In this document: positions 10,386 through 58,878 of the stretch, piece by piece
How the letters are laid out: the number at the start of each line of letters is the position of its first letter
How positions within the stretch are numbered: position 1 is the first letter of the stretch
Source: Chlamydiales bacterium
GTDB taxonomy: Bacteria > Chlamydiota > Chlamydiia > Chlamydiales > JAAKFR01
DNA length: 64,000 bases
Assembly (NCBI GenBank): GCA_022601635.1
Contig: JAJACG010000032.1
Span: 8,024 to 72,023 of the forward strand
Direction of reading: 5' to 3'
Made by a program: the position numbers and the translations under genes
Notes under the pieces: generated by a model
The model's database searches: none
What the model saw: the letters and a program-made list of their open reading frames with translations, nothing else
What the model was told of the DNA's origin: nothing

Positions 10386-11516
10386 TCACCAGCGCATTAG
10401 AGACTTTAACACTGATGAAAAATTGTCGATGTTGTGGTAGTTCAGGTAGTGTTGCTGCATCTTCTCTAATTTGTCTAACACCTTTTGATTGTCTGCTAGC
10501 TTGGCGATCTGCTCGATCGAAGTGAAGTCAACGATGAGTTCGCTTAGGTTGTGCTTTTCAAGCTCTGCTGCCATCCATGTTCCCTCTCTTACGACTGCAA
10601 TCTTTCCAGCTGAGATCGCCTCTACAAAGGGGCCGGAGGTGCGGGATGCATAGGCATTGGCATCATAGGGAAGTAGCAAGATATCGCTTTTTGCAAGCTG
10701 TTCAACATATTGCTCGCGCGTTAGCTCTGGCAGGTAGTTGATGCCAGGTGCTTTGAGATTGCCTGCAATGGGAGCATTTTGTGCTAGCTGTAAGATGGTG
10801 GCAATCCCCTTTTCTAAACGAGGAGGGCCTGGCCACCAAAAAGTTGGATTTTTGCTACTAACAGGTTTGGCTTTGATAGCCGTTGTGTGAGGAATGGGAA
10901 GTACATTTTGGCTGATTCGCTCACTATCAGAGACAATGGTAACACCACGCCAGCGAAGCAGTCGTTTCAATACTGTTTCGATATCCCGTTTTTCCGGAAA
11001 ACGGAAGAGCAGAATAAGCCGATCCCCTCTTTTTAGAAAGAGTGATGCCATTGCAATCGCCATCAGCTCTCGTAAAGGAATGGTTTCAAGAAAAAAGGTA
11101 GCCCTTTCCTTTGACTTATAGAAAAGGCGAACATAGTCAAAAAAGCGACCAGCTACACTTCGAGCGAGAGTTGGCACCCATGGTTTCTTAGTACTCTTTT
11201 CCTTAGAGAGATACTGAATAACTCGGTTATTAGAGATTCTGCCAAGATTTGTGACGTTGGGAAATTCGGAGCCTGACGCTAACCCCTTGTGGGTTAGTGA
11301 AGGCGAGAATGATGCAGCGGCGTGAAGATTGGCGGAAGATTCAATGAGCGAGTTATTCAGTGTCTCCCTAAGAGTAAGCCCTACAAATTGCATGCCTAGC
11401 AGTTCACATGCATTAGCCAGCTGGCCTTGATAGGCAAGTCCATGACCCATCTCAAAATCGTAGGGGATCAAAGAGTAAAACTTTTCTTTGGACACTACAT
11501 TATCCCTTCTTGGCAA
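10386..11516 (-). CDS. Glycosyltransferase-like protein (GT-B C-terminal half) carrying a 57-codon in-frame insertion of a palindromic repeat element
   Basis: 376 aa. The C-terminal ILLLPYDANAYASRTSGPFVEAISAGKIAVVREGTW resembles the GT1/GT4 donor-binding region. Residues 49-105 are encoded by repeat copy 11202..11372. It could be a tolerated insertion or a young pseudogene. Confidence 0.6.
   Translation of the reverse strand: MPRRDNVVSKEKFYSLIPYDFEMGHGLAYQGQLANACELLGMQFVGLTLRETLNNSLIESSANLHAAASFSPSLTHKGLASGSEFPNVTNLGRISNNRVIQYLSKEKSTKKPWVPTLARSVAGRFFDYVRLFYKSKERATFFLETIPLRELMAIAMASLFLKRGDRLILLFRFPEKRDIETVLKRLLRWRGVTIVSDSERISQNVLPIPHTTAIKAKPVSSKNPTFWWPGPPRLEKGIATILQLAQNAPIAGNLKAPGINYLPELTREQYVEQLAKSDILLLPYDANAYASRTSGPFVEAISAGKIAVVREGTWMAAELEKHNLSELIVDFTSIEQIAKLADNQKVLDKLEKMQQHYLNYHNIDNFSSVLKSLMRW
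11202..11372 (+). mobile_element. Palindromic MITE-like element, full-length copy A (171 bp), intragenic and in frame
   Basis: Terminal inverted repeats are CTTAGAGAGATACTGAATAACTCG and CGAGTTATTCAGTGTCTCCCTAAG. The core GGGAAATTCGGAGCCTGACGCTAACCCCTTGTGGGTTAG is shared with the copies at 18418 and 50005. Confidence 0.85.
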
Positions 11517-12324
11517 AATAAATAGGGCTTAAGTAGCCTCCCCTCTTTTTAGCTTCTTCTAGATCTAAGAACTCAAGACAGCCGCAAAAATCTGGCTCAC
11601 AGGAATTGCTAAAAATTTGATGCACAACATCCACCCCCTTTTCCTTTAGGAGACTTCTAACAACAGTCTCTTCAAGAGAATTGACTTCGAAAACATACTT
11701 TTCTACCGCCAGATCTCGATTCCCCAATAGCCATCTAAGGATAAATCGCTTTATGGGATAAGGCACTTGTCGTCCTAAAAAACGTCTAAATGATTTTAGA
11801 CGGCTGCATAAAAACATTGATGGAATTTGCATGATTAATGATCCACCAGGCTTCAAAATACGACCAAATTCTTTGATATAGGAAATCTGTTGCTGCCTTC
11901 CAATATGCTGTAACACAATACTGCTATAAATAAAATCAATCGAGTTATCGGAAATTACGGAGAGATCCGACTTAGGATTATGGATAAATTCAATATTCTG
12001 CTTATCACATGAAGCTTGTGCCTCATCAAGCATTCCCTGAGCTATGTCTACAGCAATAACCTTATGAAAGCAGGGTGACAATGCTAAAGAAAGCCGTCCC
12101 ACCCCACAGCCAAAGTCTAAAGCAGTCCCTGTAAATTCCACGGGCAGTCTATTTTGAGTGATGTACTGTCTTAATAGCTTAATCTCCTGCACACCTGTTG
12201 CAAAAAACTCCTCACGATTCCAAGCACCACTCTGGTGCTTCGATGAACTCAGGACAGCCCAATATGGATCTACCGATGCGTTCTGTTCCCACTCTTTCGC
12301 ATACTTTTCAACTGTCTTCATCAC
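11500..12324 (-). CDS. Class I SAM-dependent methyltransferase
   Basis: 274 aa with motif [16 protein letters not shown] and post-[12 protein letters not shown]. It overlaps both neighbouring genes by a few nt, which suggests an operon. Confidence 0.8.
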
Positions 12325-14643: not shown

Positions 14644-14928
14644 TTACTTGCACTTAGGCATGCAAGGTGAGCAGCTACGCTCTTTACAAGTTGGCTTGCA
14701 GCGTGGCTGCTTGCAGCATGGCTCGCACTTAGGCTTCGCACATGGCGCGCATTTCTTTGGGGCACATGGCTTGCACTCATTCTTAGGTGCACAAGACTTA
14801 CCACAATCACTACCGGCTGTGAACCAATTACATGGATCGCAAAAGCAATCGCAGAAATTGCTACAACCAGCTAAGCTGAACGCACCTACAATAAATAGAG
14901 CTGCGAAAGCAGTTTTCAAGTGTTTCAT
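14644..14928 (-). CDS. omcA: Small cysteine-rich outer-membrane lipoprotein OmcA (9-kDa CRP-like)
   Basis: 94 aa from ATG 14928, preceded by AAGGAG. It has the lipobox FSLAGC followed by an extremely Cys/Pro/Lys-rich sequence (CAPKNECKPCAPKKCAPCAKPKCEPCC). The longer track ORF to 15060 has no support. Confidence 0.85.
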   Translation of the reverse strand: MKHLKTAFAALFIVGAFSLAGCSNFCDCFCDPCNWFTAGSDCGKSCAPKNECKPCAPKKCAPCAKPKCEPCCKQPRCKPTCKERSCSPCMPKCK

Positions 14929-15195: not shown

Positions 15196-15237
15196 TATAG
15201 AGATACTGAATAACCGAGTTATTCAGTGTTTCCCTAA
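15196..15237 (+). repeat. Internally deleted mini-copy B of the palindromic element (termini only)
   Basis: TTATAGAGATACTGAATAAC-CG-AGTTATTCAGTGTTTCCCTAA forms a hairpin with a perfect 10-bp stem. It ends 15 nt before the murA ATG. Confidence 0.7.
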
Positions 15238-15252
15238 TCAAAGGTTCCAAAA

Positions 15253-18417: not shown

Positions 18418-18587
18418 CTATAGGAAACCCTGAATAACTCGGTTGTTGGAGGTTCTGCCAAGATTTGCGACGCTGGGAAATTCGGAGCCTGGCACTAACC
18501 CCTTGCGGGTTAGTAAGGTCGAAAATGACACCGAATCGAAAATTGTGAAGGAAGATGCCGACGGGAGTTAATCAGGGCTTCCATAAG
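18418..18587 (+). mobile_element. Palindromic MITE-like element, full-length copy C (170 bp), intergenic
   Basis: CTATAGGAAACCCTGAATAACTCGG ... CGGGAGTTAATCAGGGCTTCCATAAG, with the shared core GGGAAATTCGGAGCCTGGCACTAACCCCTTGCGGGTTAG. It lies between the sulfotransferase gene and argS. Confidence 0.85.
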
Positions 18588-43413: not shown

Positions 43414-43473
43414 CTTAGGGAGACACTGAATAACTCGCTCATTGAATCTTCGATCAATCTTCGCGCCGCTGCG
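43414..43473 (-). repeat. Truncated half-copy D of the palindromic element (inverted orientation)
   Basis: CTTAGGGAGACACTGAATAACTCGCTCATTGAATCTTCGATCAATCTTCGCGCCGCTGCG is the reverse complement of the right third of copy A. It fills the gap between the convergent 944-aa and Fic genes. Confidence 0.7.
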
Positions 43474-43474
43474 A

Positions 43475-44830
43475 TTAGACCCATTTTTTCTTCCACAATT
43501 CATATTCAGATAGACGTAGACGGTATCGTGCAATATTTCCCTCGTGTAAACCTTTTAGCTCGATTTCGACTTTCTCAATAAATTGAGATTGATCTCTTTC
43601 AGCCACCGACTGTTTAGCGATCGATTTTATCGTGCTAACAGCATCTGTTTTATTCATCTCTTTCTTTACGACAGTAGACACAGCTTCAAAGATCACCTCC
43701 CTATAGCGCAGACGGAAAGGGTCGGGGTCACCAAGGGTTTGACGCGTTGCTGAGTATAGTGCGCAAGAACGCTCATATGCCCATATAAATACATCTCTAA
43801 GCAGGTCGATCTGATTTAGCTCATACACAGCTAAAAGTCCCTCGATATAGGTTTTTTGTGGAACATCTGCAAATGACAAGGGAGATAGGTTATGTCTAAT
43901 AAGCGGTATATTTGCTGCCAGTCGAGAAACACGTTTGTTTACGTCTTCAAAGGGTTGTAAATAAGGAAGGTGAACCATAAGAAAGAAAGCTTGCTCAAAG
44001 GGATTTTGAATTGCCTGGGCTGTGTGAAGCAGCTGTTCAAAACACTCTTTGATCACATTTGGGACAGCAAGAGGATGATAAACAGACTTGGCTATTCCGA
44101 TTATTTTTGACCGGAGACTTCCACACGCTTTCGGATCTGCAAGTAAATTATCTGAAAGCAGAGCATGGATATTCAACACCGTTTGTTTATTGATATCTAC
44201 TTGATCTGCAGAATCAACCAGAAATTCGATAGCCGCTTTATGATTTAATATCATTTGAGTTTCTGCCAAGTTTTTTCCAGCAGCAGCAGCATCTAACTCA
44301 AGTAACCTCTCCGTTTCAAGAAGAGAATAGGTATTCCCCTCTAGTCTACTAGAATTCCACGATAGATCAATCAGGATGCGATTAAAAATCTCCCGTGCAT
44401 AAGTGCCGGCTGGACGCTCTTCATCAATTCCTCCCAGGACAAGAAATTTATCACAAATTGTCTTTGGTAGATATGAAGTAACATTCGGTCGATATCGGTC
44501 TAAGAACGTCCTGTCATATCCAACAGGGGTGCGTGCTTGTATAGGCTGTTCGACTAAGCTTTGGAGATGCTTAGAGTTAGAGGTTAAAGGAATACTATAC
44601 TCTTCGATACTCTTCTTTTCTTCAGGCAGTGCATACTTTCTGGCACGAGATACCCCCACCACAACAATACGTCCATGCTCAACTAGAAGGGCCAAACGTC
44701 TCTGCAAGCTACGGCGTGGACATTGTATTTCTGGTGAACTCAGGAGCTCCCGTAGCGAGGCCCCACCCGGGTAAAGCCTAAGCACCCCAATCAAAGCTTC
44801 AAACTCCTCTTCTGGAACCTTTTTTGGCAC
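43475..44830 (-). CDS. Fic-domain protein with an N-terminal winged-helix region, an internal inhibitory motif and a degenerate active-site motif
   Basis: ORF 43475..44893. The Fic-motif position reads QPFEDVNKRVSRL, versus the canonical HPFx(D/E)GNGRxxR. SSRLEGN matches the (S/T)xxxE(G/N) auto-inhibition motif. The start is reassigned to GTG 44830, which follows AAGGAG; the track's N-terminal 21 codons translate the operator repeats. Confidence 0.8.
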   Translation of the reverse strand: MPKKVPEEEFEALIGVLRLYPGGASLRELLSSPEIQCPRRSLQRRLALLVEHGRIVVVGVSRARKYALPEEKKSIEEYSIPLTSNSKHLQSLVEQPIQARTPVGYDRTFLDRYRPNVTSYLPKTICDKFLVLGGIDEERPAGTYAREIFNRILIDLSWNSSRLEGNTYSLLETERLLELDAAAAGKNLAETQMILNHKAAIEFLVDSADQVDINKQTVLNIHALLSDNLLADPKACGSLRSKIIGIAKSVYHPLAVPNVIKECFEQLLHTAQAIQNPFEQAFFLMVHLPYLQPFEDVNKRVSRLAANIPLIRHNLSPLSFADVPQKTYIEGLLAVYELNQIDLLRDVFIWAYERSCALYSATRQTLGDPDPFRLRYREVIFEAVSTVVKKEMNKTDAVSTIKSIAKQSVAERDQSQFIEKVEIELKGLHEGNIARYRLRLSEYELWKKKWV

Positions 44831-44840
44831 AGACACTCCT

Positions 44841-44920
44841 TTTTGTGTCACAATAAGGCTTATTGTGTCACAAAAAGCCTTTTTGTGACACAAAAATCAG
44901 TATTGCGACATAAAAAGCAG
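44841..44920 (-). promoter_or_regulatory. Four 20-bp tandem units, each carrying an 11-bp palindrome TTGTG(T/A)CACAA; candidate operator array of the Fic gene
   Basis: The cores are at 44843..44853 (TTGTGTCACAA), 44863..44873 (TTGTGTCACAA), 44883..44893 (TTGTGACACAA) and 44903..44913 (TTGCGACATAA). The spacing is exactly 20 bp, and the array lies immediately upstream of the SD. Confidence 0.6.
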
Positions 44921-48059: not shown

Positions 48060-48513
48060 ACCGCCCCTTCTCTTTCATAAAATGTTTCTGCTCACCAATC
48101 GTCTCAAAGCCGAAGCGGCGGTAGAGTGAAATGGCGGGATTGCCCTCATAAACCTCTAAATAGAGCACCTCAATACCAAAATACTCTTTGGCCAAGTGGA
48201 AGAGGTTGTTTAATAGCTGTGTACCGACACCCTTGCCGCGCATCTTCTCAGTCACAATGATGGAGACGAGACATTGGTGCGCCAATTTCTTGTAGGGCAT
48301 CAAGCAAAGCGTTGCGAGTCCAACAGGCTCACCCTCATGTTCCACAGTCAAACTGCTCTTGTAGCGATAGAAGCTGATCCAATGCTTGACTGAATCATTC
48401 ACCTCCTTCTCATCACACATCGGAAAGCCGGCCAAAACTCCTGGCTCCAACAGCCAATCCTTCAAATAGGGGGCGTCAGCTTCCGTCGTGTAGCGAAATT
48501 TTAGCTCCATCAA
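48025..48513 (-). CDS. GNAT-family N-acetyltransferase
   Basis: 162 aa with the acetyl-CoA motif A, IIVTEKMRGKGVGTQLLNNL, and YRRFGFE. Confidence 0.8.
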   Translation of the reverse strand: MMELKFRYTTEADAPYLKDWLLEPGVLAGFPMCDEKEVNDSVKHWISFYRYKSSLTVEHEGEPVGLATLCLMPYKKLAHQCLVSIIVTEKMRGKGVGTQLLNNLFHLAKEYFGIEVLYLEVYEGNPAISLYRRFGFETIGEQKHFMKEKGRYVSKIVMERLI

Positions 48514-49608
48514 CCAAACTCCTTCAAATAGGCAACGACGAAACCATCCAAAAGCTCTCCATCCATCATCGCCTCAATATTGCCTGTTTCAAAATTTGTG
48601 CGCACATCCTTCACAAGAGTGTAGGGTTGAAAAACGTAGCTGCGGATCTGTGAGCCCCACTCGATTTTCATCTTCTCCCCGCCCATCTGCCTCAAACTCT
48701 CTTCTCGCTCCAGAACCTGCTTCTCATAGAGCTTCGATTTGAGCATCTTCATGCAGCTCTCTCTATTTTGGATCTGGCTGCGCTCATTTTGGCAGGTCAC
48801 AACAATCCCTGTAGCTAGATGGGTGATACGAACGGCAGAATCGGTGGTATTGACATGCTGTCCACCTGCTCCAGAAGCGCGGAAGGTGTCAACGCGAATA
48901 TCTTGAGGTTGGATGTCGATTTCGATCTCATCGCTCACTTCGGGAGTGACATCGACCGAGGCAAAACTTGTATGACGTCTTGCACCGCTATCAAATGGGG
49001 AGATGCGCACCAATCTGTGGACACCCTTTTCCGCTTTGCTGTAGCCATAGGCTGAAGGTCCTGTGAATTTTAGGGTGACACTTTTATATCCGGCGACATC
49101 ACCATCAAGAGCATCGACTACTTCGACCTTCCACTTTCTTTTTTCGGCCCAGCGCTGGTACATACGGCAGAGCATCAGGGCCCAGTCGCACGCCTCTGTT
49201 CCACCAGCGCCTGCGTTGATATTCAGGTAGCAGTTGCAGCCATCCATCTCGCCAGAGAGCATGCGTTTGACTTCTAGCTTTTCGAGTTCTTCTTCGACCT
49301 GATCTAGTTGTGTATGGAGCTCACCGATCAGCTCTTCATCACCCAATTCACAGGCGTCAACGACAAGGGAGTCGACCTCTTCGAATTGTATTTTGATAGC
49401 AGCGTAGGGTTCGGTCCAGCTTTTGAGTTCGTTGGCGTCGGCGATGGTTTTTTGAGCGCTCTCTTGATCATCCCAAAATTTTGGGTCTTCCATCACCTTT
49501 TCGAGTTTTTGGACTTCTTGAGATTTTGTTTCGAGGTCAAAGATACCTCCACATGTGAAGGACTCGCTCCTTCACCTTGCGACATCTTTCTTGAATTTCC
49601 TCTTTCAT
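48510..49608 (-). CDS. prfB: Peptide chain release factor 2, expressed via a programmed +1 frameshift
   Basis: Frame 0 runs from ATG 49608 (MKEEIQERCRKVKERVLHMWRYL) to the in-frame TGA at 49539..49537. The +1 frame continues DLETKSQEVQKLEKVMEDPKFWDD... through SPF and GGQHVN to 48510. Confidence 0.95.
49536..49550 (-). promoter_or_regulatory. RF2 autoregulatory +1 frameshift site
   Basis: The minus strand reads GGAGG TAT CTT TGA C. This is an internal SD-like element 3 nt upstream of the slippery CTT-TGA-C, the same architecture as E. coli prfB. Confidence 0.9.
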
Positions 49609-49615
49609 GTCGAAG

Positions 49616-49972: not shown

Positions 49973-50010
49973 AAAGATGCTGAACGGCAGTTGTTCAGTG
50001 TCTTCTTAAG
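49973..50010 (+). repeat. Mini-copy E1 of the palindromic element (termini only), abutting the full copy E2
   Basis: AAAGATGCTGAACGGCAGTTGTTCAGTGTCTTCTTAAG is a degenerate left end plus an intact right end. It shares CTTAAG with the left end of E2. Confidence 0.55.
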
Positions 50011-50176
50011 GAGATACTGAATAAGTACCTTGCCAGAGATTTTGGTAAGATTTCTATCGAGGGGAAGTTCGGAGCCGAACGTCTAACCCCTTGTGGGTTA
50101 GTCGAGGCGAGAACGATGCCTCGATAGAAAGATTGTCGGAAGATCTGGTGAACGAGTTATTCAGTGTCTTCTTAAG
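50005..50176 (+). mobile_element. Palindromic MITE-like element, full-length copy E2 (172 bp), intergenic
   Basis: CTTAAGGAGATACTGAATAAG ... CGAGTTATTCAGTGTCTTCTTAAG. The internal arms are TTTCTATCGAGG / CCTCGATAGAAA and the central hairpin is CTAACCCCTTGTGGGTTAG. Confidence 0.85.
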
Positions 50177-58603: not shown

Positions 58604-58681
58604 GCTATTTCAGTATCTCCTATAGGAGATACTGAATAATACAGAAGATTCAATGAGCGCGTTATTCAGTGGATCCTAAAG
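58604..58681 (+). repeat. Palindromic-element remnants F: a right-end fragment joined head-to-tail to an internally deleted copy
   Basis: GCTATTTCAGTATCTCCTATAG | GAGATACTGAATAATACAGAAGATTCAATGAGCGCGTTATTCAGTGGATCCTAAAG. The junction TTCAGTATCTCCTATAGGAGATACTGAA is a perfect 28-bp palindrome. Confidence 0.65.
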
Positions 58682-58738: not shown

Positions 58739-58748
58739 TCTTTGCGAT

Positions 58749-58832
58749 GCCGATGTGGCGGAATTGGTAGACGCGGCAGACTCAAAATCTGCTCTTAGCA
58801 ATAAGGTGTTGGTTCGAGTCCAATCATCGGCA
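58749..58832 (+). tRNA. tRNA-Leu (anticodon CAA)
   Basis: The hand-folded cloverleaf has acceptor GCCGATG/CATCGGC plus discriminator A, D arm GCG-GAATTGGTAGA-CGC and anticodon stem GCAGA/TCTGC with loop CTCAAAA. It also has a long variable arm (CTTAGCAATAAG) and T arm GTTGG-TTCGAGT-CCAAT. CCA is not encoded. Confidence 0.9.
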
Positions 58833-58878
58833 TTCCATTTCTCTTGTGGTTTAATCTCTCATCATTATTTTGAAAGAG

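Follow-up and report, generated by a model that had tools for sequence, protein, structure and literature searches.

The window, that is, the whole 64,000-nt stretch of DNA analysed here, carries OmcB and MOMP genes and matches the MAG 'Chlamydiales bacterium S4CHLAM81', which agrees with its assignment to a chlamydial genome in the original prediction. Downstream of omcB and after ispF lies a glycosyltransferase (GT) gene, at a locus that holds an extra methyltransferase gene compared with the orthologous loci. The coding sequence of this GT gene contains a copy of a palindromic repeat. The features are:

10386..11516, minus strand: host coding sequence for a GT-B fold glycosyltransferase, from a family without a Pfam model; 376 aa if read from the TTG at 11516
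11373..11516, minus strand: first 48 codons of the glycosyltransferase, covering beta1, the G24-H25 motif, alpha1 and beta2; they precede the insert and are still homologous to the family
11202..11372, plus strand: repeat copy in the host gene, full length, subfamily A, 171 nt, aligned with the other copies
11207..11222, plus strand: terminal inverted repeat at the left end, AGAGATACTGAATAAC (family consensus GGAGATACTGAATAAC), with the 4-mer TTAG just before it (11203..11206)
11259..11312, plus strand: apical module, GGGAAATTCGGAGCC-TGACG-CTAACCCCTTGTGGGTTAG-TGAAGGCGAGAATGA, with an apical stem-loop and a pair of asymmetric internal loops in the consensus structure
11352..11367, plus strand: terminal inverted repeat at the right end, GTTATTCAGTGTCTCC, with the 4-mer CTAA just after it (11368..11371)

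The real start of the coding sequence is likely the GTG at 11495, giving 369 aa. The two genes join as in a tight operon, this codon lying 4 nt past the stop of the upstream methyltransferase gene, and ENA scaffold_116 has a gene call of 369 aa. Pfam returned a weak Glycos_transf_1 (GT1) match for the protein. Its AlphaFold (AF2) model (pLDDT 81, pTM 0.78) has two Rossmann-like domains with a nucleotide-sugar binding C-terminal domain, and the top Foldseek matches were GtfC/Gtf3 and other GT-B enzymes (E = 6e-9), supporting the earlier description of a glycosyltransferase-like protein. A total of 104 homologues were retrieved, the best of them 50% identical; in an alignment with 16 homologues (A2), G24, H25 and Y29 are invariant.

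A repeat copy inserted into the glycosyltransferase gene

Translation of the host ORF reads the element without a stop as residues 49-105 (LRETLNN...QYLSK), the 57-residue in-frame passage that had been predicted. At the insert junctions the protein sequence runs ...QFVGLTLRETLNN... and ...VIQYLSKEKSTK..., with QFVGLTLRETLNNSLIESSANLH... and ...NNRVIQYLSKEKSTKKPWVP as junction-spanning peptides. Residues 1-48 and 106-376 are homologous to the glycosyltransferase family and colinear with it in the A2 alignment. The segment between them is absent from all 73 homologues compared, none of which aligned more than 13 residues to it, and H25 and F142 are separated by 117 residues in the host protein as against 49-98 in homologues. 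Two positional orthologues (L010 and L011) share the gene order omcB-ispF-GT-brnQ-reductase and lack the element. The segment is thus a derived insertion of a repeat-family copy into an ancestral coding sequence, with the frame kept. A search for an empty site, meaning a close relative of the host gene without the element, returned none.

Structure prediction places the insert in a loop, as had been proposed. The model has strands at residues 12-16 and 43-49 and a helix at 25-39; residues 64-109, between beta2 (43-49) and beta3 (113-117), have pLDDT values below 50. The insertion point coincides with the most length-variable loop of the family.

The earlier statement that the element sits exactly on codon boundaries held in part: it is in frame and its length is divisible by three, but where its boundaries fall relative to codons varies with the ends chosen. 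Judged from the sequence, the net insert is more likely 165 nt, also a multiple of three, made up of a 161-nt element (GGAG..CTCC) and a 4-bp duplication.

Structure and spread of the repeat family

The 171 nt fold into one hairpin, with -89.6 kcal/mol for the plus strand (z = -12.9) and -60.3 kcal/mol for the minus strand (z = -8.7). The copy therefore has its well-folding orientation, hereafter the plus orientation, antisense to the glycosyltransferase gene, and the host mRNA contains the minus orientation. Further copies and derivatives in the window are:

15196..15238, no strand: short derivative consisting of the terminal repeats only, a ~43-nt hairpin upstream of an EPSP-synthase-family (Pfam) gene
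18418..18587, plus strand: intergenic full-length copy with a poor fold (-60 kcal/mol), chimeric in that its left arm is of subfamily A and its right arm of subfamily C
43414..43472, minus strand: partial copy, one arm, in the 74-nt gap of a convergent gene pair and 2 nt off the stop codon of a Fic-domain gene
49973..50010, plus strand: orphan right end of a further copy, tail-to-head against the copy at 50005, with one TTAA in common
50005..50176, plus strand: intergenic subfamily-B copy of 172 nt, with one extra base and no open frame, between a MOMP-like gene and prfB
58609..58681, plus strand: composite short derivative (right end, TATA, left end, right arm fragment), ~70 nt upstream of tRNA-Leu(caa)

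The original prediction had named the copies at 18418 and 50005 as non-coding relatives of the intragenic one, sharing its ends and core. Both indeed lie between ORFs, and the three copies align from end to end with a mean column identity of 78%; their core motifs occur three times, against about 0 to 0.07 occurrences expected by chance. Within about 190 kb examined, we counted 21 full-length copies plus fragments, falling into at least four subfamilies accompanied by chimeras and tail-to-head junctions. Surviving copies are nearly all intergenic, many of them right at stop codons, and seven overlap the last 3-18 nt of a gene. In the searches made, the family was detected in a few chlamydial MAGs only: a core-pattern scan of GTDB representative genomes revealed at least four copies in the MAG LOGT_bin.0132, a match in Bergeyella (L003) was dismissed as chance, and JGI metagenomes scanned with strict and relaxed core patterns gave no matches. 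The hosts of the repeat are sponge-associated chlamydiae.

The apical module is the part of the family best conserved across genomes, being near-identical in the LOGT_bin.0132 copies despite their differing arms. Compensatory changes affect 31 of the 61 stem pairs, and none of 500 shuffles reached the observed values. The constraint on the hairpin is specific to one strand: G.U pairs occupy 93 cells in the plus orientation and 14 in the opposite one, and the plus orientation of the copies folds better by 20-35 kcal/mol. At all seven loci with an absolute GC skew of at least 0.03, the C-rich strand carries the plus orientation of most copies, which hints at an orientation bias relative to strand composition. 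A plain DDE-type cut-and-paste MITE does not predict such strand asymmetry or a conserved apical core. The constraint on one strand points to a putative RNA or single-stranded DNA stage.

The element is non-autonomous and MITE-like, one long hairpin of ~161 nt between 16-nt terminal inverted repeats. It is small (below the limit of about 300 bp for MITEs), dispersed and devoid of a transposase gene, and GGAGATACTGAATAAC and GTTATTCAGTGTCTCC are conserved at the two ends of the copies. Direct, non-palindromic 4-mers flank GGAG..CTCC at several loci, namely TTTG (L009_905), ATAA (L006_6082) and, three times, TTTA (L006 tandem); the family thus probably generates a TTAA-like 4-bp target duplication. 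At the intragenic locus, the flanks TTAG and CTAA are complementary to each other rather than a direct repeat. The T/A-rich 4-mers resemble YTAR, the target of IS5. Comparison of the family end GGAGATACTGAATAAC with the IS5 end GGAAGGTGCGAATAAG showed identity at 9 of 16 positions in the same register (GGA....GAATAA.), a short match, possibly due to chance; we therefore did not classify the repeat as IS5 and retain the likeness as a lead. A Pfam scan of 40 window ORFs recovered no transposase, RAYT or HUH domain, nor did these ORFs include an autonomous partner element. Since its ends and probable duplication resemble those of IS5-group elements, we infer that the family may be mobilised in trans by an unseen transposase.

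Reading frame and fate of the host gene

We think it reasonably probable that a MITE-like copy happened to land in frame, was harmless and is seen today through survivorship, and that the enzyme, most likely, is still produced with the extra loop tolerated. The repeat would have multiplied within a small group of uncultured chlamydiae, and one subfamily-A copy would have entered the loop after strand beta2, in the N-terminal Rossmann domain of a conserved GT-B glycosyltransferase. Arriving in the sole stop-free orientation and phase of six, it would have left the ORF intact because the element length is a multiple of three. The protein would have gained 55-57 residues, predicted to be disordered, and the copy would have persisted by virtue of being harmless, in a family that is not built for life in genes.

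The insertion may instead have killed the glycosyltransferase, by disrupting the fold or by blocking translation through the hairpin, with the ORF still open only because the event is recent. The insert does lie within the N-terminal Rossmann domain, right after beta2, and it adds a very stable hairpin to the mRNA (-60 kcal/mol, ~125-145 nt past the start codon) that could impair translation of the enzyme; the full ORF was missed by one annotation pipeline, and the additional methyltransferase gene marks a locus in flux. Against such a young pseudogene, the 376 codons contain neither stop nor frameshift, and at the 45 columns conserved in at least 85% of the family the host protein deviates nowhere, compared with a family median of two deviations. 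The site of insertion, a loop of naturally variable length, also speaks for tolerance. In addition, five private differences in 171 nt set the intragenic copy apart from the three other copies of subfamily A, and it is therefore not necessarily very young; these argue for tolerance only if they arose after insertion, in which case a host gene evolving neutrally should have been damaged as well. The sequence evidence thus leans towards a tolerated insert, with the enzyme probably still functional, and we consider loss of the gene unlikely, albeit a serious contender. We also considered that the element might drive a truncated product from M152, and rejected this: between 10800 and 11700 there is no promoter-like site, and the one terminator-like site lies outside the element.

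An assembly error that threaded the repeat into the gene, or a minority allele, appears highly improbable. The source is a metagenome scaffold, and the only assembly to cross the whole element is ENA scaffold_116, identical to the window, three others breaking there. However, breaks at palindromes are expected assembler behaviour, and two independent assemblies from other samples enter the element from the side of the gene's N-terminal part for 44-76 nt, to or near the apex, ending at 11297 and 11329 with no mismatches up to those points. Moreover, the flanks join in frame and align colinearly with homologues, and the NCBI annotation holds a separately annotated protein of 225 aa that is 100% identical to the C-terminal part of the ORF. 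That NCBI records only this C-terminal piece is probably due to the contigs breaking within the palindrome.

The repeat could also serve the host as a structured RNA or regulatory module, whether as antisense RNA, processing site or stabiliser, and overlap the coding frame incidentally. The excess of G.U pairs and better folding on one strand, the compensatory changes and the inter-genome conservation of the apical module would all suit such a role, but the asymmetry is equally compatible with a single-stranded DNA transposition intermediate. Rfam recognised only a tRNA in the window at gathering thresholds, and the element itself, at E values up to 10, gave a single meaningless lncRNA match and hence no known RNA family. 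The intragenic copy lacks a promoter-like site, and the abundance of decayed, chimeric and truncated copies fits selfish repeats rather than genes. Copies take no consistent orientation relative to neighbouring genes, for which reason we also discarded a terminator or UTR function. Altogether, a host-serving RNA seems very unlikely.

The original prediction went further and saw in this copy the hallmark behaviour of Rickettsia palindromic elements (RPE-1 to RPE-10; Ogata et al. 2000, summarised in PMC10969869 and PMC3733652), of which nearly half of the R. conorii copies lie within ORFs. A true analogue would have evolved, or been filtered, to keep a translatable frame, persist in genes and donate peptide segments. 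The chlamydial repeat matches in being a palindrome of ~100-170 bp with many dispersed copies. In the intragenic copy, the six frames contain 5, 2, 6, 0, 3 and 6 stops, the minus orientation holding the sole open one, and the length is divisible by three. All four subfamily-A copies are open in the identical frame, and as three of them are intergenic, the open frame is intrinsic to the subfamily. Of 14 copies, 9 have no stop in the homologous minus-orientation frame; they come from subfamilies A, C and D, between which the arms are only 57-70% identical. In structure-preserving shuffles, one given minus frame was open at a frequency of 0.05-0.09, and any of the six at 0.16-0.26. A shared open frame in three diverged subfamilies hints at some selection for translatability, contrary to pure survivorship. 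However, the subfamilies have about one third of their sequence in common, so their open frames are not independent; the minus strand is C/A-rich, a composition that by itself cuts stop frequency; and the frame has been lost from subfamily B. Because an intact subfamily-A copy lengthens a gene by a multiple of three and only one of its six frames is open, about one random intragenic hit in six would keep the ORF.

On residence in genes, the prediction was not supported: only 1 of the 21 full-length copies is intragenic, against a coding density of about 91%. Two peptide searches over 5.8 billion protein clusters and one exhaustive HMMER search over 1.84 billion representative proteins returned the element peptide solely in eight ORFs of 54-99 aa that overlie copies, with no second long protein; two HMMER matches of 1,252-1,439 aa (P0107, P0108) were rejected as compositional matches to low-complexity repeat proteins. 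We therefore regard an RPE analogue as improbable. A convergent chlamydial counterpart, in which the hairpin spreads as single-stranded RNA or DNA while copies are filtered to retain one translatable frame on the opposite strand, and can thereby survive within genes and seed new protein loops, strikes us as equally doubtful. If true, it would explain the G.U bias, the compensation in the arms, the apical core as a conserved protein-binding module and the orientation bias, and the glycosyltransferase would be its first caught example.

Relation to known bacterial repeats

Compared by description, the chlamydial family and RPEs are both palindromic repeats of ~100-170 bp from obligate intracellular bacteria with one open frame (in 9 of 14 copies of the chlamydial family), and the glycosyltransferase copy is likewise in frame in a conserved enzyme gene, its peptide at a fold-compatible site. 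The chlamydial copies differ in being strongly excluded from genes, in their well-defined terminal inverted repeats and probable target duplications of 4 bp, and in belonging to another phylum.

Closer parallels are MITEs with occasional in-frame intragenic copies, such as ERIC and RU-1/RU-2 of enterobacteria (PMC2759123), QMITE1 and QMITE2 of Coxiella burnetii (PMC5896051) and the MITEs of Anabaena (reviewed in PMC10969869). Like these, the chlamydial repeat is small and non-coding, has terminal inverted repeats, forms long hairpins and lies mostly in intergenic regions, often at gene 3' ends, with rare copies giving translational fusions or internal peptide insertions. Unlike them, it represents a new sequence family in a new host phylum. 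Its hairpin runs from end to end, subfamilies differ by compensatory changes, one strand shows a marked G.U bias, and the apical part is better conserved than most of the arms.

The probable 4-bp T/A-rich flanking duplications and the 9/16 end match recall the IS5 group (E. coli IS5), whereas no transposase gene was found among the window ORFs scanned and DDE cut-and-paste leaves the strand-specific hairpin unexplained. That constraint and the hint of orientation bias are instead reminiscent of IS200/IS605 elements and of RAYT-mobilised REP/REPIN sequences. IS200/IS605 elements produce no target duplication and lack terminal inverted repeats, and the window ORFs scanned yielded no HUH domain. 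REPs measure 20-40 nt and carry GTAG or CGTC heads (PMC3733652); the chlamydial unit measures 161-171 nt and has different ends, and no RAYT domain was found in those ORFs. For students of MITE movement, a strand-specific hairpin constraint is of interest in its own right.

The literature on Chlamydiae, as far as searched, describes no such repeat family, and the source paper of the S4CHLAM81 MAG does not mention repeats; the original remark that in-frame palindromic repeats are not known as an established property of this phylum agrees with this. The hairpin repeat in the glycosyltransferase gene is genuine and a first for chlamydiae; it is one isolated event, and other bacteria provide known cases of its kind. 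It also bears on annotation: palindromes break short-read assemblies exactly at the hairpin and yield truncated gene calls, so that chlamydial MAG annotations near such repeats are to be read with care. Rickettsia, Coxiella, enterobacteria and cyanobacteria are already known to have gained protein loops from mobile hairpin repeats that survived in frame within genes, and the chlamydial case extends this to a further phylum, with a clean comparison, by synteny, of the locus before and after insertion.

Insertion of a palindromic repeat into a glycosyltransferase gene

End-to-end alignment of 11202..11372, 18418..18587 and 50005..50176 bore out the original prediction that these stretches are one repeat with common termini (CTTAG-GAGATACTGAATAAC ... 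GTTATTCAGTGTCTCC-CTAAG) and a common core (GGGAAATTCGGAGCC...CTAACCCCTTGTGGGTTAG); where the window has three occurrences of the core motifs, shuffled sequence has essentially none. Searching for repeats, and with an nhmmer profile, brought up further fragments and short derivatives.

Repeat copies in the window and the neighbouring tRNA gene
11202..11372, full copy, inside the glycosyltransferase (GT) ORF 10386..11516 (minus strand)
18418..18587, full copy, between ORFs
50005..50176, full copy, between ORFs
15196..15238, fragment or short derivative
43414..43472, fragment or short derivative
49973..50010, fragment or short derivative
58609..58681, composite short repeat derivative, ~70 nt upstream of the tRNA gene
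58748..58833, tRNA-Leu(caa), the only tRNA gene of the window

The window also holds other repeats and a recoding signal. At 44835..44920 the sequence TTTTTGTGTCACAA(A) is densely repeated, both inverted and direct; this cluster lies at the start of a Fic-domain gene (43475..44893, minus strand), adjoining an aminotransferase-IV gene, and resembles an operator or a further small palindromic unit. ORF 61352..63256 (plus strand) contains, at 62541..62774, a 78-nt (26-codon) unit repeated three times in tandem with 92-100% identity. The release factor 2 (prfB) ORF (48510..49496, minus strand) lacks its N-terminus; just upstream (49536..49610, minus strand), a short ATG-initiated frame precedes a classical programmed +1 frameshift site (GGAGG TAT CTT TGA C). 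Such frameshifting is ordinary for prfB and easily mis-annotated.

The window matches the metagenome-assembled genome (MAG) 'Chlamydiales bacterium S4CHLAM81' from a study of sponge chlamydiae, which does not mention repeats (PMC9666466). Its host ORF (minus strand, 376 codons) matches glycosyltransferases in Pfam only below threshold, and has 104 homologues, mostly of 320-390 aa and mostly chlamydial. An AlphaFold model computed with 16 homologues as input (mean pLDDT 81, pTM 0.78) found its best PDB matches in the GT-B enzymes GtfC/Gtf3. The gene order omcB, ispF, GT and, on the opposite strand, a branched-chain amino-acid transporter and an FAD/NAD reductase recurs around P0003 and P0002, the closest two homologues, making these positional orthologues. 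A class I SAM-dependent methyltransferase gene (11500..12324, minus strand) between ispF and GT is absent from these syntenic loci (L010, L011), implying a lineage-specific gene gain in the GT operon. The true GT start is likely the GTG at 11495, 4 nt past the methyltransferase stop; it yields 369 aa, the same call as on ENA scaffold_116.

As had been claimed, the host ORF runs through the element without a stop, as LRETLNNSLIESSANLHAAASFSPSLTHKGLASGSEFPNVTNLGRISNNRVIQYLSK; the remaining five frames of this copy contain two to six stops each. On sequence comparison, the resulting 57-residue segment is an insertion. In a 17-sequence alignment, the kind of check that had been proposed, all homologues are gapped over residues 49-105, and each of 73 homologues aligns at most 13 residues within the segment. 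Residues 1-48 of the host keep the family-invariant G24, H25 and Y29, and the H25-F142 spacing is 117 residues compared with 49-98 (median 74) in homologues. Neither L010 nor L011 contains a copy of the element. Deleting the element plus one flanking 4-mer leaves ...QFVGLTLKEKSTKKPWVP..., which, aligned by eye, corresponds to ...GLFPKKTKLDRLQKNWVP... in homologues.

Anatomy of the element family

Profile searches were run on the window plus ~125 kb from related loci, which were obtained via tiny ORFs lying on copies and a core-pattern scan. They yielded 21 full-length copies along with numerous fragments, a density of about one per 5-20 kb. The family resides in S4CHLAM81, SP1CHLAM42 and the MAG 'uncultured Chlamydiaceae LOGT_bin.0132', where its arms differ; core-pattern scans of the JGI metagenome collection returned no copies, and no Rfam family matches the element. 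There are at least four subfamilies (A, B, C and D), as well as chimeras, two of which fold poorly and indicate recombination between copies: 18418..18587 joins an A left arm to a C right arm, and 14753..14928 of related locus L009 a C left arm to a B-like right arm.

The element is bounded by 16-nt inverted repeats (GGAGATACTGAATAAC / GTTATTCAGTGTCTCC), which in three loci are flanked by non-palindromic direct 4-mers (TTTG, ATAA and, in one tandem, TTTA three times); tail-to-head neighbours have one 4-mer in common. Seven full-length copies extend 3-18 nt into the 3' end of a neighbouring gene and cover its stop codon, so that some genes receive their last codons and stop from an element end. 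The pattern is consistent with a target resembling TTAA/TTAG/CTAA, in which stop codons are contained.

Overlaps of full-length copies with gene ends in related loci
L004 4428..4431
L006 6249..6251
L006 10238..10243
L017 1529..1532
L017 1861..1863
L018 6507..6518
L018 10149..10166

The window encodes no transposase. Set in the same register, the ends of the element and of E. coli IS5 agree at 9 of 16 positions, a resemblance that we regard as a lead only. Taken together, the small copies, subfamilies, ends, flanks and lack of an encoded transposase make this the anatomy of a MITE, a small non-autonomous element, in every respect but two: an identified partner and, at the intragenic copy, a proven duplication.

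Hairpin, strand and reading frame

The 171-nt element folds into a single hairpin spanning its whole length, at -89.6 kcal/mol (z = -12.9) on the better-folding (+) strand and -60.3 kcal/mol on the complementary strand. Arms diverge between subfamilies but remain complementary, with compensatory double changes at 31 of 61 pairs; 92.8% of cells are paired, versus 81.5% in shuffles (0 of 500 reaching the observed value) and 38-46% with slid partners. Thirteen aligned copies, with all four subfamilies among them, add up to 93 G.U cells on the + orientation against 14 A.C cells, the latter being G.U pairs on the opposite strand; for most copies, though not the chimeras, folding of the + orientation is also more favourable by 20-35 kcal/mol. 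Being independent of a copy's direction in the chromosome, this asymmetry is intrinsic to the element and implies constraint on one single strand, RNA or single-stranded DNA. The apical third is the most conserved part, above the arms.

Across the window and loci L001, L002, L004, L005, L006, L009, L017 and L018, neighbouring copies tend to be co-oriented (for example 6/6 in both L017 and L006), and in all seven loci with an absolute GC skew ≥0.03 the + orientation of most copies lies on the C-rich strand. These few data hint at a replication-linked orientation bias, and are only suggestive. Nine of 14 copies have no stop in the frame that the GT gene uses: every A copy, two of the four C copies and three of the four D copies; subfamily B carries one extra base. 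Structure- and composition-preserving shuffles leave a given minus frame open at a rate of 0.05-0.09 and any frame at 0.16-0.26. The same open frame is thus unlikely to have arisen by chance in three diverged subfamilies, though their shared core and ends make them non-independent.

Survivorship, decay or gene compatibility

Nearly half of Rickettsia palindromic elements (RPEs) sit in genes (PMC10969869). Here, counting intragenic copies, as had been suggested, gave one of the 21 full-length copies from the window and related loci, though coding density is ~91%; for the first 14 copies, the binomial probability of at most one intragenic copy under random placement is 2e-13. Neither 5.8 billion protein clusters, searched with the element peptide and with an all-subfamily profile, nor 1.84 billion representatives, searched exhaustively with HMMER, yielded another long protein with the peptide; the hits were only 54-99-aa ORFs on copies and two matches rejected as compositional false positives. 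The chlamydial element therefore lacks the defining RPE feature, frequent residence inside genes: the RPE-like behaviour originally proposed describes the outcome at the GT locus but does not characterise the family. Survivorship at a permissive loop is the most economical interpretation. Insertion of an intact A copy lengthens a gene by a multiple of three bases, and one of the six frames of such a copy is open, so a random intragenic hit keeps the ORF in about one case in six; selection purges ORF-breaking hits and copies in intolerant sites. We accordingly consider an in-frame, tolerated MITE insertion persisting by survivorship the probable explanation.

Its main rival, a young pseudogene, strikes us as rather unlikely. 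It would accommodate the -60 kcal/mol hairpin now near the start of the GT mRNA, and an NCBI annotation covering only a 225-aa C-terminal piece. The latter probably has a trivial cause, since short-read assemblers break at the palindrome: the NCBI contig with the N-terminal part stops at 11297, the exact hairpin apex, and a second assembly at 11329, both identical to the window as far as they go. These breaks inside the palindrome, noted with loci L013, L014 and L015, come from independent assemblies of the same organism. Only one assembly spans the complete element, which limits certainty about its exact internal sequence, not about its presence at the site. Judged from its sequence, the gene leans towards being alive: it has no stops or frameshifts, and deviates at none of 45 columns that are ≥85% conserved (family median 2, maximum 7). 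The insert immediately follows strand beta2 (43-49) and precedes beta3 (113-117), at the loop whose length varies most within the family, and is probably a floppy surface loop as residues 64-109 have pLDDT <50; the structural model thus agrees with the suggested loop position. A gene-compatible hairpin element moving via a single-stranded intermediate, convergent with RPEs, appears less plausible still, although strand asymmetry, apical conservation and the shared open frame are unexplained by a cut-and-paste model.

MITE copies lying in frame within genes, as here, are on record for Rickettsia and Anabaena (reviewed in PMC10969869), enterobacterial ERIC/RU elements (PMC2759123) and Coxiella QMITE1 (PMC5896051); the literature searched contained no description of a comparable repeat family in Chlamydiae. 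What is new is therefore not the intragenic in-frame MITE as such, but the MITE-like family, its host phylum and a single clean insertion that keeps the reading frame. In chlamydial MAGs, these repeats break up contigs and cut gene calls short.
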